Notes: generated from the letters alone by a model not told the origin. DNA of 64,000 nucleotides from an uncultured Flavobacteriales bacterium (GCA_964544885.1 CAZJDX010000018.1:4108-68107); one strand, 5' to 3'. Numbered from the stretch's first letter, positions 37,992-49,295 are shown. Numbers and translations: made by a program.

Positions 37992-38068
37992 TGGTCGGGG
38001 TGGCGGGATTTGAACCCACGGCCTCCAGCACCCCATGCTGGCGCGCTACCAGGCTACGCTACACCCCG
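37992..38068 (-). tRNA. tRNA-Pro (GGG)
   Basis: Minus strand CGGGGTGTAGCGTAGCCTGGTAGCGCGCCAGCATGGGGTGCTGGAGGCCGTGGGTTCAAATCCCGCCACCCCGACCA: cloverleaf, GGG anticodon, encoded CCA. TACATTTG promoter at 38091-38098. Confidence 0.96.
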
Positions 38069-38420
38069 ATTTTTTCAAAAAAATCAGGCGCAAATGTATT
38101 AAAATAATGATGGAATTCAGGACTGAACTGTAAATAATTTATGAAAAATTCACGATTTGCCCAACTAACGCAGGGTACCTGAAATCAAATCACACTAATG
38201 AAACTTTTTTCTGAATGATAAGGAGAAAATAAACCGGTAATCAGGGTTTCAGGATGAAATTCCGGTCCGCTTTTCATGATCCGTTAAAAAATCAAACAAA
38301 TCTTACAATGTACTGAGATGTACCCTTATTAAAAGCCTTCGCATGACGGCCGGTGTAGTTTTATCAATTGAAAAAGCAGGGCAATCATTCTGATTATTCA
38401 CTCGCTTATTCAAAAACAGC

Positions 38421-41400
38421 ATGAGACTAAAACTACAACTGAGTCGTACGGTATTTCTTGCCATGATGATGTTGTCTTTGTTCATCAAAACAGGATCTGC
38501 AAGTCATACCATGGGCGCTGACCTCACCTATGAGTGCCTTGGAGGAAATACCTACAGGGTAACCTTGTCATTTTACCGGGATTGTATCGGTATTCCCGCT
38601 CCGGCCAATCCGTTGGTATATGTTCGTTCAGCCAGCTGTGGACAAAACCTGAATGTTACGGTAAGTCCAAGACCCGGAACCGGACAGGAAGTAACTCCTT
38701 CCTGTTCAAGTTCTGTGACTACCTGCAGCGGTGGTACTTTCACCGGGATTCAGGAATGGGTCTATGATGGAATCATCACTCTTCCGATGAATTGCACCGA
38801 TTGGGTATTCAGCTATTCACTGTGTTGCAGAAATGCCGCAATTACTACTATCACTAATCCGGGTACAAGCACTTTCTATATTTATTCAACGCTGAATAAT
38901 GTGGTTAGTACCTGTAACAGCTCTCCTACCTTCTCAAACAAACCTGTTCCCTTCCTTTGTCTTGGACAACAGTATTGTTTCAACCATGGAGCTTATGATC
39001 CGGACGGAGATTCGCTTGTTTATGAACTAATCACTCCAAAACAAACCGCAGGCGCCGATGTGGTATACATGGCGCCGTACAATGCATCCAATCCTTTAAA
39101 TTCATTTCCTGCCACTTCATTTAATCCGGTTACCGGAGACATTTGTCTGAACCCTCAGAATATTGAAGTAACCGTAATGGCTGTGCTTGTGAAGGAATAC
39201 AGAAATGGTGTTCTGATTGGTTCGGTCGAAAGGGATTTGCAATTGACCGTGATGAACTGCGCCAATAATCTTCCTTCGCTTACCGGTATAAATGGAACCA
39301 ACGATTTCAGCATCACCGTTTGTGCCAACGCGGAAACCTGCTTCGACATTTTCTCCATAGATCCCGATGCGGGCCAGACACTCGAAGTGAACTGGGATAA
39401 TGGTATTGCCGGTGCATCTTTCAGCTCTTCCGGAGGAACAAGACCTACAGGAACATTTTGCTGGACTCCTCAGCCTTCCGATATAGGAAGTACAAACATC
39501 TTCACGGTGCGGGTAAATGACGATGCCTGTCCTTATTATGGAAGTCAGATCTACTCCTATACGGTGAACGTTATCGGAATTACGGCGAACGCCGGACCGG
39601 ATCAGTTAATTGCATGCAGCGACCTTGCCACACTTACAGCGGTGGGTTCCGGTGGAAGCGGATCTTACACTTATCAATGGAGTAATGGATCAACCTCACA
39701 ATGGATCACCGTTGGTGAAGGCACCTACTGGGTTACAATCAGTGATGGCACCTGTATGGCAACGGACACGGTGAACGTAATGATGCCTTATATTCCCGTA
39801 GCGGCATTTACACATTCAACAACAACGTGTAATAATCTTCCTGTCAGCTTCACTGATCAATCCACCACACCGGGTGGAATTATCTGGAGCTGGTACTGGG
39901 ATTTCGGCGATGGCACCTCATCAACTCTTCAGAACCCAACGCATTTGTTTCCGGGAGCGGGAACCTATGATGTCAGTCTGATCATCGAGAATACGCTTGG
40001 CTGTCTTGATACCATCATCCAACAAATCACCATCGCTGATCCTCCTACAGCCGACTTTTCCTACAGCAATACCTGTGTAGGAACCTCGGTTACTTTCACT
40101 GATCAGAGTTCGCCTTCAGCTTCGGTCAGCGGCTGGAACTGGAATTTCGGGGACGGAACAAGCTCAACGCTACAAAACCCGGGTCATACGTATACAACTA
40201 CCGGTACCTACACCGTGACATTGATTACCAACAATGCATTTGGATGCAGTGATACCGCTGTCAGGATAATCACGGTCAATCCTCTTCCGGTTATCAGCGC
40301 GGGCGCTGACCAGTCGGTCTGTGCGGGATCATCCATCACATTGACCGCATCCGGCGGTACGAGTTATACGTGGATGCCGGGTGGATCCACCTCACCGACC
40401 ATAGTCGTGAACCCGTCAGGTAGCACACCCTATGTTGTGACAGGTGAAGATGCGAACGGATGTATCAATTCAGATACTGTTTGGGTAAGCATTGATCCAC
40501 TTCCTGTTGTTACTGCGGGTGCCGATGTTTCAATCTGTGCCGGTACTTCCACCACCCTCAGCGCCGGTGGCGCCGCTACTTATACCTGGACACCGGGCGG
40601 ATCCACTTCAGGCTCAATCATCGTGAGCCCATCATCGGGTACAAACTATACCGTTACCGGAACTGACCTAAACGGGTGCAGCGCTTCCGACATCGTTAGT
40701 GTGAATGTCAATTCCATACCACTGGCTTCGGCAGGACCGGATCAGCATATCTGCTCGGGTTCAAGCGCGGTATTAAATGCAAGTGGTGGCGGAACGTATA
40801 GCTGGTCTCCAGGCGGAAGTACCTCTTCGTCCATAACGGTGAATCCATCCTCTTCCACAACGTATGTGGTGACGGTCAGTAACGGAAGTGGTTGCAGCGC
40901 TCAAGACTCCATGAGAGTTTTCGTTCATCCGCCTCCGTCAGTCTCTCTGCAGTCCTTATTCCTATGCACAGGTTCCACCACCACACTGGACGCCGGCCCG
41001 GGCATGAGTTCGTATTTATGGACACCGAATGGAGAAACCACACAAACTCTTGTTGTCACTACAGGCGGAAATTATGGAGTTACCGTTACCGATAGTCTTG
41101 GCTGCAGTTCAACTGCCAGCGCATCGGTAACGATGGGTACGGCGATCGCGATCAATCTGGATGATGTATTCTTCTGCCAGGGAGACAGCGCTATACTGGA
41201 CGTGGGATACTCCGGACTGACTTACAACTGGTCGACAGGACAAACTACTCAGGCAATTACCATCTATAACCAGGGTAGCTACAGTGTTACCGTCAATGAC
41301 ACTTCAGGTTGCAGTGGTTCGATTACCATCAATGCGCAGACCAATCCCATTCCTGTGGCCAACTTTACCACCAACTCCGTTTGTGCAGGTACAGTAACTT

Positions 41401-44400
41401 CTTTCACTGACGCTTCTTCTGTTGGTTCAGGCATTATCAACGCCTGGTCATGGGATTTTGGTGATGGTGCAACATCAACAGATCAGAACCCCGATCATAC
41501 GTATACAAGTCCGGGAACCTATACAGTGACACTGATGATAAGCAGCGCAGAAGGCTGTGTAAATCAGGTAAGCAACGATGTAACCGTGAATCCACTGCCT
41601 GTTGCCTCGTTCACAGCAGGAAATACATGCCAGGGACAGGTTCTTAATTTTACAAATACCTCTACCGTTTCATCAGGAATTATTTCCACCTACTCCTGGA
41701 ACTTTGGTGATTCGAACAACTCTTCACTTCAGAATCCATCGCATACTTACAGCGTTTCAGGATCATACAGTGTCAGTCTGCAGGTAAGTACCGCGGGAGG
41801 ATGCTCCAACAGCGTATCGCAGACAGTCAATATCAGACCCTTGCCTGTTGCAAGTTTCAGCACGATGCCGGTATGTCTTGGAAGCCCAAGCACTTTCCTC
41901 AACACTTCCGGAATATCAACCGGATCCATCACTTCGTATACCTGGGATTTTGGAAATACGGCAACTTCAACTCAAACCAATCCTGCCCATACCTACGCAT
42001 CAGCAGGCACCTATACTGTCCGACTGATCGCCGTTTCGTCTTTCGGATGTTCCGATACCGTAATTAATTCAACCCAGATCAATTCCCTTCCGCTTGCTAT
42101 GGCAGGCAGCGATCAAACTATCTGTTCCGGCAGCACGGCAAACCTGACCGCCTCCGGAGGTGTTTCATATACATGGATGCCAGGTTCACTGAACAGCGCG
42201 AACATAACTGTGAATCCGGTAACGGGTACCAACTACACGGTGAGCGTTACGGATGTTAATGGATGCAGTGCAAATGACGTGGTAAGGGTGAATGTGAATT
42301 CGCTGCCTTCAGTTTCAGCCGGACCGGACAGAGTACTTTGTACCGGAAGTTCAGTGACTCTAAACGCGGCCGGAGGAGCCACTTATACCTGGACTCCCGG
42401 ACTAAGCACGGGCAGCAGCATCACGGTAAATCCAACGGTAAACACCACTTATACCGTTACAGGTACAGACCTGAACGGATGTACAAATTCTGACCTCGTT
42501 ACTGTCAGTGTAAATCCTTTACCGCTTGTGAATGCAGGACCTGACCGCACTATCTGTATGGGTTCAACCACTTCACTCAGCGCCAGCGGAGCAAATACCT
42601 ACTTGTGGAACCCGGGAGGCAGTACAAGCTCAGGAATTCTGGTTGGTCCTGCTGCCAGCACAAATTACATAGTTACAGGTACCGATGTGTCGGGTTGCAT
42701 TAACAGAGATACAGTCAGGGTCAATGTAAATCCACTGCCGGTGGTGAACCTGTCGCCCGCCTTTATCTGTCCGGGTTTCAGCACCACACTCGACGCAGGA
42801 AATCCGGGATCAACTTTCTTCTGGTCGACAGGAGAAACAAGTCAGACCATATCAGTGAACGACTCAGGAACCTATACTGTTGAAGTTACTGGCGCTAACG
42901 GTTGTCCTGTAACAGCATCCACTGTTGTGACACTTGGAAACACCATCAATTCAGTTCCGGTGATCAGCTCGGTTTGCAGTGGAATGAATGCCACTCTCAA
43001 CGCGGGAAATCCCGGAAGCAGCTATCTCTGGTCAACAGGCAGCACCGACTCAAGTATTTCGGTGGCGACTGCAGGCAATTACAGTGTCACCATTACTGAT
43101 CCGAACGGTTGTACCGGGACTGTACTTCATACAGTCAACCTGAACCCTCTGCCTGTTGCCTCCTTCAGTGCCACTCCGGTATGTGAAGGTGATATAGTAC
43201 TGTTTACCAATACCTCATCCGTATCATCCGGAACCATCCAGGCTTATTCCTGGGATATGGGTGACGGTTTCACCTCCTTCCAGACTCAACCTTCACATAA
43301 TTACAGTAATGCCGGAACTTACAACGTCTCGCTGGTTGTTGTCAGCGATTACGGATGTAACGACAGCATTACCGGAACAGTTGAAGTGTATCCATTACCA
43401 GTCGCATCATTCAGCAGCAGCACCGTCTGCGAAGGACAGGGTACTGCCCTTAACGATGCCACAACGATTGCAAGCGGTTCCATTAATTCCTGGAATTGGA
43501 GTTTTGGCGATGGAACGTCCGGGTCAGGGGCTTCAATCAGCCATACCTATGCGCAGCATGGATCATATTCCACAACACTGATCGTAAGTTCCGACCATTC
43601 CTGCCGTGACACTGTGCAGCAGAATGTTACTGTTCATCAGTTGCCTGAAGCCATCTTTAGTGCTCCCGATGCCTGTGTTAACAGTCCCGTGCAGCTGACA
43701 AATAACTCTTCGGCGGGTACTGGCTCCATTCTACTCTATACATGGGATCTGGGAGATGGTAATACCTCAAATTCTTCAGCACCTGTTTACCAGTATACGG
43801 TTGAAGGAAGCTATACCATCAGTCTGCATATCACTTCCAGTGTGGGTTGTACACATTCACTTACGGATGTGATTACAGTACATCCTGAACCGGTCAGCGC
43901 ATTCACCAGTCCGGCAAGCTGTGAAAGCTCTTCAACCCGGTTCACCAATACTTCTTCCATTGTCAGCGGAAGTATCAGCAATTACTATTGGGATTTCGGA
44001 GACAACTCCAGCTCAAACGACATTGAACCTTCGCACAGCTATGCAGGATCCGGCAATTATACGGTACGTCTGATCACCACTTCAGCTTTTGGCTGCAGGG
44101 ATACTGTACAACAGACCACGATTGTCCATCCAGACCCTGTTGCGGCTTATACTGCAATGAATGTATGTGAAGGAGCCCCTGTGGAATTTCTTGAAAGTTC
44201 TGCCATCAGCTCCGGAATCATAACATCCTGGTCATGGGATTTTGGCGATGGAACCGGATCATCACTCGATGAACCCGTCCATATTTACAATAATTCAGGT
44301 TCATATCCGGTGAGCCTGATTGTCACCTCGGCAGAAGGATGCACGGATGAACTCATATCCAACGTGGTGATCTATCCAAATCCGGTAGCTGCATTTCTTT

Positions 44401-46139
44401 CCAGCAATGTTTGTCTTGGAAATAACAGCACCTTTATAAACCAGTCGGGTGTGGCAGGAGGAATATCTTATAGCAGTCACTGGGATTTCAGTGACGGCAA
44501 CCAAAGTTCCCAAACCAACCCGACGCATACGTTCAGCGGCTCTGGTATCTACACTGTACAGTTGAATATTACAACGGTCCATGGTTGTGTCAACAGTACA
44601 ACGCAAAATGCCCGCATTTACTTACCACCGGTAACTTTATTCTCGGCAGACGATGTTTGTCGCGGAGGAATTACCAGTTTTAATGATAATTCATATTCAC
44701 AGGATGGAAACATTGTAAGATGGTACTGGAATTTTGGAGACGGCTCCGCTTCCACGGAAGGTAATCCGGCTCACCTCTATACTCAGTCAGGAAAATATGG
44801 TGTGTCACTTACCACTACAACATCCTTCGGTTGCAGCAGTCCTTATCAGGATACAGTAGAAATCTATGAAAGACCTGTGGCGGGAATTCAGACCGCGAAT
44901 GTATGTGAAGGGATGCCTGTTCAGTTCATCAACACTTCGGTGAACAATACCGGTACTTCAGTAAGTTATCTTTGGGACCTCGGAAACGGGTTTACTTCCG
45001 CTGATTCAAGCATCACCTATCTCTTCCCGCAACCGGGCACCTATGACATTACGCTCACCTCTACTTCCGATGCGGGTTGTTCAGATACCCAATTGCACAG
45101 GTTATCCGTTTATCCGAATCCTGAGGTATTGTTCGCCGCTAACGAAGCCTGTGAGAATGCCAATCTTGCCTTCCTGAATCAGTCAGGAATTCAGACCGGA
45201 AGCATCCAGTCTTATCAATGGGATTTCGGTGACGGCAGCAGCGGCAGCAACAGAAATCCGATTCATAATTATTCAACAGCCGGAACCTATCAGGTAAGCC
45301 TGACTGCGGTTTCGGATCAGGGATGTGTGAACAACAGAATCGCACAAGTCATCATACATCCGCAACCGCATGTTCAGTTCTCCGGTTCGTATCAGGGATG
45401 CGCGCCACTCAATGCCAACTTCCTGAATACTTCGGTGATCAGCAGTGGAAACATCAGCGGATGGTTGTGGAACTTTGGCGATGGAAACATTTCCACGGAA
45501 GAGCATCCTGTTCATACCTATACTCTGGGAGGTAGCTGGAACATCAGCCTTACCGTTGTTTCGGATCAGGGATGCCAGGCGACTTACACCGCTCCGGCAT
45601 CGGTACGGACATACCCTCAGCCGGATGCTGACTTTACAGCAAATCCTCTGGTGAGTGATAATGTGAGTCCGACGGTCCACTTTACAAATCTATCCAGCGG
45701 TTTTACTTCCTATATCTGGAATTTTGGCGATGGAACATCAACAAGTCATGAACTCAATCCGGTTCATACCTTTTCCGATACCGGAACTTATACAGCACGA
45801 TTGATTACGATAAATTCTTACGGATGCAGAGACACCATGCTCCGTCATATCGAGATCCGGCCTAAATCGACATTATTTGCTCCCAACTGTTTCACGCCGA
45901 ACGGTGACGGTCATAACGATAAGTTCAGACCCTATTATACCAATATGACAGATATTCAGGTGTGGATATTTGACCGGTGGGGACTGCTGCTAACCAGCTG
46001 GGATGGATTGGAAGGAAACTGGGACGGATATTATGGAGGAGAAAAATGTCAGCAAGACACCTATGTCTACAAGATCAGAGGACTTGGGGTTGACGGAAAG
46101 TATTCAGAGTGGGTTGGACATGTAAGTATTGTGTACTAA
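38421..46139 (+). CDS. Giant PKD/Ig-repeat surface protein with gliding-motility (type B T9SS) C-terminal domain
   Basis: 2572 aa. Signal peptide, SHTMGADLTYECLG N-domain, 16 W-x-(F/L/M)-(G/S)-(D/N) PKD-type repeats by my count, AGxD Ig repeats, and C-terminal PNCFTPNGDGHND...IFDRWG...WDG...TYVYKI. Confidence 0.92.
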   Translation: MRLKLQLSRTVFLAMMMLSLFIKTGSASHTMGADLTYECLGGNTYRVTLSFYRDCIGIPAPANPLVYVRSASCGQNLNVTVSPRPGTGQEVTPSCSSSVTTCSGGTFTGIQEWVYDGIITLPMNCTDWVFSYSLCCRNAAITTITNPGTSTFYIYSTLNNVVSTCNSSPTFSNKPVPFLCLGQQYCFNHGAYDPDGDSLVYELITPKQTAGADVVYMAPYNASNPLNSFPATSFNPVTGDICLNPQNIEVTVMAVLVKEYRNGVLIGSVERDLQLTVMNCANNLPSLTGINGTNDFSITVCANAETCFDIFSIDPDAGQTLEVNWDNGIAGASFSSSGGTRPTGTFCWTPQPSDIGSTNIFTVRVNDDACPYYGSQIYSYTVNVIGITANAGPDQLIACSDLATLTAVGSGGSGSYTYQWSNGSTSQWITVGEGTYWVTISDGTCMATDTVNVMMPYIPVAAFTHSTTTCNNLPVSFTDQSTTPGGIIWSWYWDFGDGTSSTLQNPTHLFPGAGTYDVSLIIENTLGCLDTIIQQITIADPPTADFSYSNTCVGTSVTFTDQSSPSASVSGWNWNFGDGTSSTLQNPGHTYTTTGTYTVTLITNNAFGCSDTAVRIITVNPLPVISAGADQSVCAGSSITLTASGGTSYTWMPGGSTSPTIVVNPSGSTPYVVTGEDANGCINSDTVWVSIDPLPVVTAGADVSICAGTSTTLSAGGAATYTWTPGGSTSGSIIVSPSSGTNYTVTGTDLNGCSASDIVSVNVNSIPLASAGPDQHICSGSSAVLNASGGGTYSWSPGGSTSSSITVNPSSSTTYVVTVSNGSGCSAQDSMRVFVHPPPSVSLQSLFLCTGSTTTLDAGPGMSSYLWTPNGETTQTLVVTTGGNYGVTVTDSLGCSSTASASVTMGTAIAINLDDVFFCQGDSAILDVGYSGLTYNWSTGQTTQAITIYNQGSYSVTVNDTSGCSGSITINAQTNPIPVANFTTNSVCAGTVTSFTDASSVGSGIINAWSWDFGDGATSTDQNPDHTYTSPGTYTVTLMISSAEGCVNQVSNDVTVNPLPVASFTAGNTCQGQVLNFTNTSTVSSGIISTYSWNFGDSNNSSLQNPSHTYSVSGSYSVSLQVSTAGGCSNSVSQTVNIRPLPVASFSTMPVCLGSPSTFLNTSGISTGSITSYTWDFGNTATSTQTNPAHTYASAGTYTVRLIAVSSFGCSDTVINSTQINSLPLAMAGSDQTICSGSTANLTASGGVSYTWMPGSLNSANITVNPVTGTNYTVSVTDVNGCSANDVVRVNVNSLPSVSAGPDRVLCTGSSVTLNAAGGATYTWTPGLSTGSSITVNPTVNTTYTVTGTDLNGCTNSDLVTVSVNPLPLVNAGPDRTICMGSTTSLSASGANTYLWNPGGSTSSGILVGPAASTNYIVTGTDVSGCINRDTVRVNVNPLPVVNLSPAFICPGFSTTLDAGNPGSTFFWSTGETSQTISVNDSGTYTVEVTGANGCPVTASTVVTLGNTINSVPVISSVCSGMNATLNAGNPGSSYLWSTGSTDSSISVATAGNYSVTITDPNGCTGTVLHTVNLNPLPVASFSATPVCEGDIVLFTNTSSVSSGTIQAYSWDMGDGFTSFQTQPSHNYSNAGTYNVSLVVVSDYGCNDSITGTVEVYPLPVASFSSSTVCEGQGTALNDATTIASGSINSWNWSFGDGTSGSGASISHTYAQHGSYSTTLIVSSDHSCRDTVQQNVTVHQLPEAIFSAPDACVNSPVQLTNNSSAGTGSILLYTWDLGDGNTSNSSAPVYQYTVEGSYTISLHITSSVGCTHSLTDVITVHPEPVSAFTSPASCESSSTRFTNTSSIVSGSISNYYWDFGDNSSSNDIEPSHSYAGSGNYTVRLITTSAFGCRDTVQQTTIVHPDPVAAYTAMNVCEGAPVEFLESSAISSGIITSWSWDFGDGTGSSLDEPVHIYNNSGSYPVSLIVTSAEGCTDELISNVVIYPNPVAAFLSSNVCLGNNSTFINQSGVAGGISYSSHWDFSDGNQSSQTNPTHTFSGSGIYTVQLNITTVHGCVNSTTQNARIYLPPVTLFSADDVCRGGITSFNDNSYSQDGNIVRWYWNFGDGSASTEGNPAHLYTQSGKYGVSLTTTTSFGCSSPYQDTVEIYERPVAGIQTANVCEGMPVQFINTSVNNTGTSVSYLWDLGNGFTSADSSITYLFPQPGTYDITLTSTSDAGCSDTQLHRLSVYPNPEVLFAANEACENANLAFLNQSGIQTGSIQSYQWDFGDGSSGSNRNPIHNYSTAGTYQVSLTAVSDQGCVNNRIAQVIIHPQPHVQFSGSYQGCAPLNANFLNTSVISSGNISGWLWNFGDGNISTEEHPVHTYTLGGSWNISLTVVSDQGCQATYTAPASVRTYPQPDADFTANPLVSDNVSPTVHFTNLSSGFTSYIWNFGDGTSTSHELNPVHTFSDTGTYTARLITINSYGCRDTMLRHIEIRPKSTLFAPNCFTPNGDGHNDKFRPYYTNMTDIQVWIFDRWGLLLTSWDGLEGNWDGYYGGEKCQQDTYVYKIRGLGVDGKYSEWVGHVSIVY

Positions 46140-46171
46140 AGAAAGTGCGTTTGCTTTTTCATGGTGTGTTG

Positions 46172-46210
46172 GAAAGACCTCCGGTGCAAACCGGGGGCTC
46201 TTTCTTTTTT
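46172..46210 (+). terminator. Rho-independent terminator (likely bidirectional)
   Basis: CCTCCGGT-GCAA-ACCGGGGG stem, GAAAG/CTTTC extension, T-run. Confidence 0.8.
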
Positions 46211-46221
46211 AAGGAGAGGGA

Positions 46222-46407
46222 TCAGTATCTCCATCCCGGTGGATAAACTGTCCGCGTATAGGGTTTTGTCCTGGCTACCGACTTGAGGTAAGCAATGTGA
46301 GGTGGTGTGCCAAAAATCGATCTAAGTTTTCTGAATTCATCCAGCAACCTTTGCTGTACCTGATTTCTCGGTGTGAATCCGGCGGAATTAAACTCTGAAT
46401 AGCTCAT
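46222..46407 (-). CDS. Candidate small hypothetical protein (61 aa)
   Basis: A-rich leader (AAACAAATTAATCAGC-ATG), ends just before the bidirectional terminator. No family recognised. Confidence 0.35.
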   Translation of the reverse strand: MSYSEFNSAGFTPRNQVQQRLLDEFRKLRSIFGTPPHIAYLKSVARTKPYTRTVYPPGWRY

Positions 46408-46692
46408 GCTGATTAATTTGTTTATACAAGATATTCTCCATTGTCTGATTATTCAATAAATATTGGTTTCACCGGTTTAATCATGGGTGAGCAGTCGGAT
46501 GAACAGGGTTAAAGAACTTTATACGGAATACTCCGGAAGCAAGGAAATTAAACCAAGATCCTGAACCCGGGAAAAGAAAGTAAAGGCAACAAAATAATAA
46601 TCGTAGCTGAACGAAAGAGTTTTTCAAGACAATTACGGAGAACCCGGTGGAAAATCCATTGCCTTAAAAGCTGCACCAAATTTTCCTATAAC

Positions 46693-46727
46693 GTCAAAGC
46701 CCTTCCGCTTGCGAAAGGGCTTTTGAC
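46693..46727 (-). terminator. Stem-loop, probable terminator of the adjacent structured element
   Basis: Minus strand GTCAAAAGCCCTTTCG-CAAG-CGGAAGGGCTTTGAC. One stem position is G-U on the minus strand but C-A on the plus strand. Confidence 0.55.
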
Positions 46728-46744
46728 TATTCACCTAAACAAAA

Positions 46745-46918
46745 ATTGAATCTGATAAAAAGGCAGGAAGGTGGCAGCGGTCAGCCGAAAACCAGGATGG
46801 AAACACAGATGACCTCTGGATGACCACTGCCGAAAAGTTCCGGAATTTGATTCGAGGGAATGAGGGGATTCACTCAAAGTCCGGATTCTCTGGCCTGCAA
46901 TGAAATATCAGATTCAAT
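46745..46918. ncRNA. Candidate structured non-coding RNA of unknown class
   Basis: Nested stems: 46745-46757/46906-46918 (13 bp perfect), 46763-46767/46894-46898, 46773-46783/46821-46831 (10 of 11 WC), 46839-46850/46874-46885 (11 of 12). No ORF of 60 aa or more here. Minus-strand TACTTTTG at 46962-46969. Confidence 0.5.
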
Positions 46919-47115
46919 ATTCCATAATGACAAAACAAAATGAAGAACTAAATCAACCCTGCAAAAGTAGTCGCATTCACACTTTTTAATTTCTGTTTTA
47001 TGCCAACAGATGCTTCCCGGTGGCCAACATACCGATATCGATGGCGAAAGATTTACCGGTCTTTTTGAAGAAATTACCCCTTAAAACCTTAATTTTAGTT
47101 AAATTTTCAAACTTT

Positions 47116-47146
47116 TTTGTTTCAAGGGATGGTATTCTTAGCTTCG
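47116..47146 (+). promoter_or_regulatory. Bacteroidota promoter for the prolyl oligopeptidase gene
   Basis: TTTG (47116-47119), 19-nt spacer, TAGCTTCG (47139-47146; one mismatch to TAnnTTTG). Confidence 0.55.
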
Positions 47147-47171
47147 CCACTATTCTTAAATCCACCAAAAC

Positions 47172-49295
47172 ATGAAACCAGCTTCAATCTTGATTTTCGC
47201 CTTGTTCATTACCTGTAATATGGCAATAGCCCAGCTATTACCTTATCCAAAGGTTCACAAAGTGGAACAGGTTGATGATTACTTCGGTACTAAGGTTTCC
47301 GATCCGTACCGGTGGCTTGAAGATGATCATGCACCGGCTACACTTGATTTCGTGAAAGCGCAAAACAAGGTGACAGAAAATTATCTGAGTTCCATTCCGT
47401 TCAGAAACAAAGTCAAGGAAAGACTGACACAATTGTGGAATTTTCCCAAATGGTCAGTACCGTTCAAAGGAGGAAAGAATTATTTTGTTTATACAAATGA
47501 CGGACTCCAAAATCAGTTTGTACTGAATATACTTCGTTCCGGCCCTTTCTCCAAACCGGAAACTTTTCTTGATCCGAACACACTCTCAAAAGATGGTACC
47601 GTGAATGTATCTAATGTTTCGGCTTCGAAAGACGGAAAATATCTTGCCTATTCTTCCTCCAGCTCCGGCAGCGACTGGAACGAAATAAGAGTAATGAACA
47701 CAAGCACCGGCTCAACATCGAATGATAAGGTGGAATGGGTGAAATTTTCCGGTATCGCCTGGAAAGGGAATGGGTTTTACTATTCCCGTTACGATGAACC
47801 AGATGCCACCGCGAAGCTGAAAGGGAAAAATGAATACCACAAGGTCTATTATCACTCCGTGGGCAATCCGCAGAAATATGATATCCTCGTTTACCAGGAT
47901 GAAAAAAATCCTCTCCGGAATTTTTACGCGGGAACAACCGATGATGAAAGATATCTCATCATCAGCGGATCAGAGGGTTCAAGCGGCAATGACCTCATCG
48001 TAAAAGATCTCAGGAACCCTTCTTCAAATTTCGTCCGGCTTGTCGATAATTTTGACAATGATTATGCGGTGATCGGCAATGACAGTGCGAATCTTTTCAT
48101 CCTGACAAATAAAAACGCGCCAAGGTATGAATTGGTCCTTGTAAATCCTCTAAGGCCTGAAATTCCCTGGAAGACTATCATTCCCCAGAGCGCTGACGTG
48201 CTGGAATCCGTTTACACAGGGAGCGATTACCTCATTGCAAAATACATGAAAGATGCCAAATCGGTGCTCAAAATTTACAGCCGGAAAGGCCAATTCATTA
48301 TGGAAGTACCGCTTGAAACACTGGGTACGGTGGATCAGCTTTCCGCGAGCACATCAGACGATTTAATGTTTTATTCGCTGGCCACCTTCACGGCACCCTC
48401 CACGATATACAGCTTCAACCTCAAGACAAGGGAACAAAAAGTATATTTCAAACCAGAACTTGAATTCAAGAGCGAAGAATATGAGACGAGGCAGGTATTT
48501 TATCCTTCAAAGGATGGTACCAGAATCCCTATGTTCATCGTTCACAAAAAAGGACTCGTGTATGATGGTAATAATCCGACACTACTTTATGCCTACGGCG
48601 GATTCAATCTTCCACAGCCTCCCATATTCAAGATTGAAAGACTGGTATTCCTGGAGAACGGCGGTGTGTTCTGTCTTGCCAATATCCGCGGGGGCGGTGA
48701 ATATGGAGAAGAATGGCACGAAGCAGGAACCAAATTGAAAAAGCAAAATGTCTTTGATGATTTCATCGCGGGAGCAGAATATCTGATCAGGGAAAAAATC
48801 ACAAAGCCGGAAAAACTGGGAATGCAGGGCCGATCCAACGGAGGACTGCTTGTTGGCGCCGTGATGAACCAGCGTCCCGACCTGTTTAAAGTCGCGCTTC
48901 CCGTTGTAGGTGTTATGGACATGCTTCGCTATCATAAATTCACCATCGGATGGGCCTGGAAAGGCGACTATGGATCCAGCGAGGACGAAGTGAATTTCAA
49001 GAACCTCTATGGCTACTCCCCTCTTCATAATCTGAAGGAAGGGGTAAATTATCCCGCTACACTGGTTACCACCGGCGATCACGATGATCGCGTGGTGCCA
49101 GCGCATTCATTCAAATATATTGCGACTTTACAGGAGAAGTATAAAGGAGAAAATCCGGTATTGATCAGGGTCGATATAAATACCGGACACGCCAGCACCA
49201 CTGCCCTGGGCTCCAGCAAACCGGTAGCAAAACAGATTGATGAGCAAACTGACAATTTCAGCTTCCTGATGTTTAACCTGGGAATGAATCCCTGA
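47172..49295 (+). CDS. Prolyl oligopeptidase (S9A), exported
   Basis: Signal peptide, DPYRWLED, GRSNGGLL (catalytic Ser), TGDHDDRV (Asp), TGHA (His). Confidence 0.95.
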   Translation: MKPASILIFALFITCNMAIAQLLPYPKVHKVEQVDDYFGTKVSDPYRWLEDDHAPATLDFVKAQNKVTENYLSSIPFRNKVKERLTQLWNFPKWSVPFKGGKNYFVYTNDGLQNQFVLNILRSGPFSKPETFLDPNTLSKDGTVNVSNVSASKDGKYLAYSSSSSGSDWNEIRVMNTSTGSTSNDKVEWVKFSGIAWKGNGFYYSRYDEPDATAKLKGKNEYHKVYYHSVGNPQKYDILVYQDEKNPLRNFYAGTTDDERYLIISGSEGSSGNDLIVKDLRNPSSNFVRLVDNFDNDYAVIGNDSANLFILTNKNAPRYELVLVNPLRPEIPWKTIIPQSADVLESVYTGSDYLIAKYMKDAKSVLKIYSRKGQFIMEVPLETLGTVDQLSASTSDDLMFYSLATFTAPSTIYSFNLKTREQKVYFKPELEFKSEEYETRQVFYPSKDGTRIPMFIVHKKGLVYDGNNPTLLYAYGGFNLPQPPIFKIERLVFLENGGVFCLANIRGGGEYGEEWHEAGTKLKKQNVFDDFIAGAEYLIREKITKPEKLGMQGRSNGGLLVGAVMNQRPDLFKVALPVVGVMDMLRYHKFTIGWAWKGDYGSSEDEVNFKNLYGYSPLHNLKEGVNYPATLVTTGDHDDRVVPAHSFKYIATLQEKYKGENPVLIRVDINTGHASTTALGSSKPVAKQIDEQTDNFSFLMFNLGMNP

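Follow-up and report, generated by a model that had tools for sequence, protein, structure and literature searches.

A structured non-coding RNA gene in an uncultured Flavobacteriales lineage and its putative place in a surface-protein regulon

To our knowledge, the regulatory RNAs of Bacteroidota are poorly known beyond a few gut and fish-pathogen model species, and those of uncultured environmental lineages of this phylum are essentially unexplored. The question considered here is whether an unannotated, apparently structured segment in the genome of an uncultured Flavobacteriales bacterium is an RNA gene and, if so, what kind of RNA it is likely to encode. The segment is located in a 64 000-nucleotide stretch of DNA (GCA_964544885.1 CAZJDX010000018.1:4108-68107; hereinafter, the window, to which all coordinates refer), and a preliminary description of it offered two readings, an independently transcribed structured RNA and a riboswitch-like leader. 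All the sequence elements listed in that description are present where it placed them when the region is read directly.

The first of these readings holds: the conserved -7 promoter box and terminator, the covariation of the paired positions, the excess of G-U pairs, the single-copy status and the lack of an Rfam match all speak for a locus that is very probably a real RNA gene, encoded on the minus strand. The leader reading fares poorly because the downstream open reading frame (ORF) of 61 codons has a promoter of its own and is separable from the RNA. What is predicted is a stand-alone gene for a structured non-coding RNA of ~263 nt (46693-46955, minus strand, the strand of all the RNA features described below), with both ends placed from sequence features, instead of the ~175 nt originally estimated. 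Across the family, the gene is conserved together with its promoter and terminator, its covariation-backed fold, its neighborhood and a common architecture of promoter boxes, and it occurs as a single copy.

Distribution and boundaries of the RNA gene

The preliminary description recognized no known RNA class in this element, and database searches bear this out. When the entire window was compared with the 4227 families of Rfam 15 using cmscan, the only match was a tRNA at 37995-38068, and the RNA itself had none. A permissive scan of positions 46100-47250 (E <= 10) produced only chance-level similarity, with the best matches, at 15-18 bits, to unrelated snoRNA and miRNA models, and the Rfam families of Bacteroides small RNAs (BTnc) failed to match even at E <= 10.

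The element is present once in the 3.35-Mb genome. A BLAST search finds one copy in each of five congeners, with 70-74% identity, and also detects it in a second genus, and a covariance model of the core (R1) yields exactly one match per genome in 37 of the 54 genomes of the family, in six of the 10 genera. The same model has no match in ~92 genomes from other families of the same order, nor does a model built from 30 members (R2) have any in the 299 genomes searched from elsewhere in the class. Of 185 579 species genomes scanned with an exact pattern, only uncultured metagenome-assembled genomes labeled Bacteroidota, Bacteroidia or Flavobacteriales came up, along with a few chance matches; nine further members came from a metagenome scan. 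When the pattern for the 3' tail was allowed one mismatch, the outcome of the scan across the phylum was indistinguishable from that for a control pattern. The possibility that the element is a MITE or another dispersed repeat was considered and rejected because it is single-copy, once here and once in each related genome, and retains the same flanking genes in 24-27 of the 30 loci.

In the minus-strand alignment of the homologs, the promoter, the core, the tail and the terminator are all conserved. The box TACTTTTG (46962-46969), put forward in the preliminary description as a candidate promoter, conforms to the Bacteroidota sigma-A consensus TAnnTTTG, the -7 element of the primary sigma factor in this phylum (PMC9723704). 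The distance from TAnnTTTG to the 5' GUUC motif downstream of it is constant in the 28 of 30 members that have this box, and TAATTTCG takes its place in the other two. Transcription would start ~6-8 nt after the -7 box, so that the 5'-terminal motif AGUUCUUCAUUUU (46937-46949; family consensus (A/C)GUUC(U/A)UU), which is present in all 30 members, would occupy approximately positions +5 to +15 of the transcript. At the opposite end, the hairpin GCCCUUUCGC/GCGGAAGGGC (46697-46724), followed by UUUG, has the appearance of an intrinsic terminator, as previously proposed, and the 3' end of the transcript is expected to fall within this UUUG. The U-tract of the window genome is weak and so short that a simple scan does not call the terminator, and 28 of the 30 members have an equivalent hairpin followed by 4-12 U residues, 5-14 nt past the tail, with several unrelated types of stem sequence.

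The RNA is non-coding: the substitutions in the stems are compensatory, the insertions and deletions in the loops break the reading frames, and no conserved frame was found in the aligned homologs. A mini-ORF starting at an AUG in the tail, with the Shine-Dalgarno-like AGGUGA, was also considered and discarded, given that the AUG is missing in the window genome and the frame is not kept.

A three-way junction supported by covariation

The 176-nt core folds on the minus strand with a minimum free energy of -61.7 kcal/mol (z = -5.6), a value that none of the 200 shuffled sequences equals; on the plus strand, the energy is -56.5 kcal/mol (z = -3.4), again beyond the reach of any shuffle. RNAalifold, applied to a MAFFT alignment of the homologs, yields a three-way junction made of the helices P1, P2 and P3, and this junction is strongly supported by covariation. 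In the 30-sequence alignment, which was fitted to the covariance model and hence favors the structure, 94.4% of the cells in modeled pairs are paired, compared with 81.3% in the shuffles and 20-45% in controls with slid partners. In this same alignment, changes on both sides occur in 24 of the 30 pairs, the kind of covariation among homologs that the preliminary description had named as a check, and none of the 500 shuffles reaches any of the five covariation measures. The independent route through MAFFT and alifold produces the same helices. The top-scoring pairs in a mutual-information scan of the 30-member family are the modeled ones, and no pseudoknot or additional covarying helix emerged from it. 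The fold is thus branched, in agreement with the preliminary description, which had set it apart from the rod of 6S RNA, and all three arms of the consensus show covariation.

The choice of the strand, too, can be gleaned from the pairing pattern. The fraction of paired cells is 94.4% on the RNA-sense strand versus 90.2% on the reverse strand, and there are 55 G-U cells versus 19 A-C cells, favoring the minus strand that had been proposed as the RNA sense. The two imperfect pairs singled out in the preliminary description, one in the hairpin at 46773-46831 and one in the downstream hairpin, indeed read as C-A on the plus strand and become G-U when the minus strand is taken as the RNA.

The junction is closed by P1, formed by GCAGG (46894-46898) and CCUGC (46763-46767), both strands of which are placed by the covariation alignment; this is the 5-bp stem noticed originally on the plus strand as GCAGG at 46763-46767 pairing with CCTGC at 46894-46898. 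Its columns are 99.3% paired (n = 30), with double changes in two of the five pairs. The two long hairpins of the preliminary description (~46773-46831 and ~46839-46885) correspond to P3 and P2, respectively. In P2 (46839-46885), compensatory changes are found in all seven modeled pairs, and the large C-rich loop GUGAAUCCCCUCAUUCCCUCGAAU (46850-46873) contains the family-conserved core AAUCCCCUCA. P3 (46773-46831) consists of a 14-bp lower stem, an internal loop and a 4-bp upper stem, with double changes in 15 of the 18 pairs and 94-96% of the cells paired across the 30 sequences; its apical loop, cGUGUUUCCA, also given as GUGUUUCCA (46798-46806), is conserved at >=90%. Overall, sequence conservation reaches >=90% in P1, at the base of P3 (GGUAACGG/CCGUUACC) and in both apical loops, whereas the other stems vary freely. 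In genus g9 (L068, L070 and L071), an extra hairpin is inserted in the P2 loop.

Two features that figured prominently in the preliminary description turn out to be local. The word GCCGAAAA (46784 and 46829), paired with CTCTGG (46814 and 46888), does occur twice but is not conserved as such; from the region of the repeated words, the family retains only the U-rich UUUUC segments, in the junction segment J2/3 and in the internal loop of P3. Similarly, the perfect 13-bp closing stem ATTGAATCTGATA (46745-46757)/TATCAGATTCAAT (46906-46918) is present but is kept only within the genus of the window genome. At the RNA level, this genus-specific outer stem, P0, brings together the 5' strand AUUGAAUCUGAUA (46906-46918) and the 3' strand UAUCAGAUUCAAU (46745-46757) into a duplex of -17.1 kcal/mol (z = -5.5) in the window genome. 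The duplex is significant in this genome and in three of the five congeners tested, and near zero in L042, L053 and the other genera, where the 5' region makes a local hairpin instead; with its significance limited in this manner, the outer stem was rejected as a feature of the family. In the congeners L043, L044 and L046, the 5' segment AUUUCAAG can pair either with the upstream CUUGAAAU, forming a local hairpin, or with the 3' linker CUUGAKAU, extending P1, which is possibly a lineage-specific alternative fold. The 5' GUUC motif could also pair with the tail if G-U pairs are allowed, but this helix is unsupported because the members with altered tails show no compensating change.

Neighboring genes, promoter boxes and a candidate regulon

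The RNA gene is transcribed divergently from a prolyl oligopeptidase gene (47172-49295) in 27 of the 30 loci and faces the 3' end of a giant gene encoding a PKD-repeat protein secreted by the type 9 secretion system (T9SS; 38421-46139) in 24 of the 30. The stop codon of the giant gene is followed (46140-46215, plus strand) by TAAAGAAAGTGCGTTTGGTTTTTCATGGTGTGTT and a bidirectional terminator, an arrangement conserved in all 15 aligned orthologous loci. At the beginning of the giant gene (38350-38420; L130-L143), the -7 box gGTGTAGTTTTA is located ~65-70 nt before the start codon in 14 orthologs; from this conserved position, the 5' untranslated region of the giant gene can therefore be put at ~60 nt. 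The neighborhood of the RNA in genus g9 is different, with a small secreted protein and a TonB-dependent-receptor-like gene adjoining it.

Within the ~550-nt gap between the RNA and the giant gene, on the same strand as the RNA, there is a conserved, unannotated ORF (46222-46407, minus strand) for a basic protein of 61 amino acids, MSYSEFNSAGF...VYPPGWRY (MSYSEFNSAGFTPRNQ...TRTVYPPGWRY), the conservation of which is codon-like in 15 of 15 loci. The ORF has a -7-like box, TATCTTG (46427-46433, minus strand), and two further boxes (~46482-46494 and ~46504-46513, minus strand) of the same type as those in the promoter of the RNA. At least 22 of the 30 loci have the ORF downstream of the RNA, at a distance of ~290-500 nt in most members and 1.7-2.1 kb in two congeners; another gene intervenes in G002 and G003, and in g10, the RNA and the ORF are on different contigs. 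With a profile, the ORF is detected in 80 of the 146 genomes of the order, among them some from families and genera that lack the RNA, and it is missing from genus g9, which has the RNA. No relative of the 61-aa protein was found in Pfam, NCBIfam or PDB, its family is small, with 18 representatives among 1.84 billion proteins, and its AlphaFold model, with a pLDDT of 58, is too poor for a fold search. A search with the filters off for divergent homologs of the RNA upstream of the ORF in other genera and families, covering 18 loci, found none. An obligate pair of the RNA and the small protein was accordingly dismissed, the two distributions being different; the RNA and the ORF appear to be co-regulated neighbors, neither such a pair nor a leader with its gene.

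The co-regulation is suggested by the layout of the promoters. Upstream of the -7 box of the RNA, there are three direct repeats, exactly 21 nt apart in nearly all members and with the consensus cATTCACCt in most relatives. All three are degenerate in the window genome, where the distal TTCACC-type box is CTTTCGCCAT (47041-47050), with a spacing of 21-22 nt, the middle box is GTTGGCCACC (47020-47029), one such step of 21-22 nt from the proximal box, and the proximal box is GTTGGCATAAAA (46996-47007). The proximal box, with the family consensus rTTGACAAAAA, starts ~38 nt ahead of the -7 box in every member. The three best-matching boxes are those of the RNA in genus g9.

When a weight matrix of the box was run over the window genome, strong double boxes were found 23 times at a spacing of 21 nt, 10 times at 20 nt and six times at 22 nt. 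Arrays with the same layout precede five genes whose large secreted products, of 781, 1412, 1598, 2195 and 4709 amino acids, carry T9SS sorting domains (the arrays are at C2:107654(+), C4:122314(-), C4:28463(-), C10:51462(+) and C10:51176(-)), and the 1598-aa protein is a paralog of the giant PKD-repeat protein encoded next to the RNA. The same boxes precede the 61-aa ORF across the order. The arrays look like the binding sites of a transcription activator, and the RNA, the ORF and the T9SS cargo genes probably belong to a single activator-dependent promoter class. The 21-bp phasing alone prompts the guess, by analogy, that the activator would be of the AraC/XylS or the LytTR type.

The common phased promoter motif ties the RNA to a small conserved protein and to giant T9SS cargo genes and therefore provides a testable regulon hypothesis for the control of surface proteins. 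Because its promoter has this repeated control motif in common with the genes for giant secreted surface proteins, the RNA is probably a regulator; with the same box array in front of the 61-aa ORF and several giant cargo genes, it is read here as the riboregulator arm of the regulon.

The 3' tail, candidate mechanisms and known RNAs

The candidate interaction site is the unpaired 3' tail AUUUUUGUUUAGGUGAAUAGUC (46725-46746), a segment of which is written as UUUGUUUAGGU. In the consensus, the core of the tail, UUUGUUUAGGUGAAUA, takes part in no helix; 22 of the 30 members have exactly this sequence, and 29 keep GUUUAGGU, the exception being L055 (GUUUAGUU). The tail also resembles the promoter boxes in reverse complement (TATTCACCTAA): in the form TATTCACCTAAACAAAA, it corresponds to the box unit over all 21 nt, A-rich spacer included, and scores 13.8 of 15.3 bits on the box matrix, which was built without the tail. 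A score this high is reached at only 72 of the 6.7 million positions in the genome, which puts the chance of such a match for a gene of this size, judged post hoc, at ~0.006. In the eight members with divergent tails, the TTCAC core of the box is lost in most, whereas GUUUAGGU is kept in seven, and the conserved center of the tail is therefore shifted off the core of the box. Constraint at the RNA level thus seems to dominate in the tail, and part of the conservation could be at the level of DNA, which is conceivable because of the similarity between the tail and the DNA box.

Given this anatomy and the regulon-type promoter, the best fit is an activator-controlled RNA that acts in trans as part of a surface-protein regulon, a reading adopted here tentatively. 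Under this scenario, transcription would proceed from a sigma-A promoter with the -7 box TACTTTTG, with the activator bound to the three TTCACC-type repeats spaced by 21 nt, so that the RNA would be made while the activator is on, and would end at the intrinsic terminator. From 5' to 3', the product would comprise the conserved 5' motif, the variable 5' hairpin or outer stem, the P1-P2-P3 junction, the tail UUUGUUUAGGUGAAUA and the terminator, and it would act in trans on other transcripts through the exposed tail and, possibly, the loops. Base pairing as the mechanism is a still more tentative proposition, for which, as for transcription itself, the activator and the action in trans, we rely on inference.

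Target searches bear on this proposition. Four probes, namely the tail, both loops and the 5' motif, showed no enrichment against 2615 crudely defined translation start regions of one genome; for the tail, 183 duplexes with these regions were below -12 kcal/mol, compared with 245 for the reversed probe. The leaders of the putative regulon genes were not outliers with these four probes or with one for J2/3, and the best local site, in the start region of the adjacent giant gene, was not conserved in 14 orthologs. Furthermore, a three-way junction with sequence-conserved helices and loops exceeds the needs of most base-pairing small RNAs, which hints at a protein or ligand partner.

The main rival, accordingly, is a protein-binding or scaffold RNA, in which a protein would be bound or sequestered by the junction and the loops (AAUCCCCUCA, GUGUUUCCA and the U-rich junction), and the RNA would work as a decoy or within a ribonucleoprotein instead of by base pairing; as the partner, one may think of an RNA-binding protein or of the neighboring basic 61-aa protein. 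Such a role, although rather unlikely in our estimation, would account for the conservation at >=90% of P1, the base of P3 and both apical loops while the other stems vary, is compatible with the absence of convincing mRNA targets in the searches made, and draws on the presence, next door in most members, of a very basic, conserved small ORF with the same type of promoter. The 61-aa protein, however, is no obligate partner, being found in 80 of the 146 genomes, RNA-less ones included, and missing in g9, and no partner can be named, this protein having no match in Pfam, NCBIfam or PDB and a model with a pLDDT of 58. A less probable alternative, and a distinctly improbable one, is that the tail is conserved mainly as DNA, serving as a fourth, inverted operator in looping or autoregulation, as with O2 and I1 of AraC, with the function of the RNA located elsewhere or minor. 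The match of TATTCACCTAAACAAAA to the complete box unit, with its low chance expectation, is what such an operator would produce, but the tail is better conserved than any promoter box, loses TTCAC and keeps GUUUAGGU in the divergent members, and is invariant where the promoter of the neighboring ORF has moved off, and the remainder of the RNA covaries at the RNA level. A more elaborate version, which we regard as very unlikely, is that the tail of the RNA recognizes the box itself, either in read-through transcripts that contain it or directly in the regulon's operator DNA (via an R-loop or triplex at the 21-nt arrays), and feeds back on the transcription of the giant T9SS genes, with the three-way junction recruiting a protein partner. 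If true, this would amount to an RNA-guided layer on top of a transcription-factor regulon; a tail that mirrors the operator sequence would, if functional, connect a transcription factor with its small RNA in a new way.

Also very unlikely is a cis-acting leader or attenuator that would control read-through into the 61-aa ORF. The position of the ORF, on the same strand and ~290-500 nt downstream in most members, would suit this role, as would the terminator immediately after the conserved tail, with its weak U-tract in the window genome, and the complementarity between the tail and the promoter boxes of the ORF in a hypothetical read-through transcript. Against it, the ORF has its own -7 box and promoter boxes in all lineages, RNA-less ones included, is set apart from the RNA by an intervening gene in G002 and G003 and by the contig break in g10, and is missing in g9; the constant core is followed by entirely different terminator stems in different genera, and neither a conserved alternative pairing nor an extra covarying helix was found in the family, although a lineage-specific switch is conceivable. 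Finally, the RNA could be the divergent 6S RNA of this lineage, sequestering RNA polymerase. It is, like 6S RNA (RF00013, RF01685), a single-copy, stable-looking structured RNA of 180-260 nt, that is, of roughly the right size, and no match to RF00013 or to RF01685 (6S-Flavo) was found anywhere in the genome at E <= 1. This last observation says little, at least for 6S-Flavo, because RF01685 has no hit above its threshold in any of the 146 genomes of the order; should this order possess a 6S RNA, it is matched neither by RF00013 in the window genome nor by RF01685 in the 146 genomes. Within 46100-47250, the 6S models have no match even at E <= 10. Unlike 6S RNA, the element has a covariation-backed branched fold, not a rod with a central bubble, and a patchy, narrow distribution, limited among the searched genomes of the order and class to six of 10 genera in a single family, and its promoter appears to be regulated and activator-dependent, not housekeeping. 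On the fold and the distribution, the 6S identity was rejected, and it is scarcely credible.

With the trans-acting regulatory RNA retained as the preferred reading, the locus represents a cleanly delimited new RNA family, with a predicted promoter, start, fold, seed-like tail and terminator, which is confined to one uncultured family of bacteria and seems to be of a familiar kind, namely a stand-alone structured regulatory RNA within a regulon. A known RNA of this kind is RNAIII of Staphylococcus, the transcript of the agr P3 promoter, which is 514 nt long, contains 14 hairpins and encodes delta-haemolysin. Its promoter depends on the activator AgrA, a LytTR-family protein whose binding sites are direct repeats with a phasing of ~21 bp; RNAIII interacts through its C-rich apical loops and serves as the RNA component of a regulon that comprises surface and secreted proteins. 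The present RNA resembles RNAIII in being a multi-hairpin structured RNA with its own promoter and terminator, repeats spaced by ~21 nt and a C-rich loop, a likeness that in this case comes from the sequence and involves a putative activator; it differs in belonging to another phylum, in its size (~263 nt versus 514 nt) and in having no homology to RNAIII in sequence or structure.

Closer in phylogenetic terms are the small RNAs of Bacteroides thetaiotaomicron, such as GibS and MasB, which pair with A-rich translation start regions without Hfq. These come from the same phylum and, like the RNA described here, are stand-alone genes with a promoter of the TAnnTTTG type and an intrinsic terminator, whereas the present RNA is larger, is built around a covariation-backed three-way junction, belongs to a different, uncultured family and is not matched by the Rfam models of Bacteroides small RNAs even at E <= 10. 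With the orphan Bacteroidota motifs of the Flavo-1 and Bacteroidales-1 type, which come from comparative genomics, it has in common that it is a lineage-restricted, intergenic structured RNA defined by covariation; unlike most such motifs, it comes with a promoter, a terminator and co-regulated genes that can be delimited, and is not a member of Rfam 15.

The box array itself invites comparison with promoters of the AraC type, such as araBAD with its I1-I2-O2 sites, where 21-bp direct-repeat half-sites by the core promoter are combined with a distant half-site. The resemblance is in the geometry of the boxes only: repeats spaced by 21 nt adjoin the core promoter, and there is an additional, distant copy. 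Here, unlike in araBAD, the repeats are three in number, and the distant copy is inverted, lies inside the region predicted to be transcribed into the RNA and exceeds the promoter boxes in conservation.
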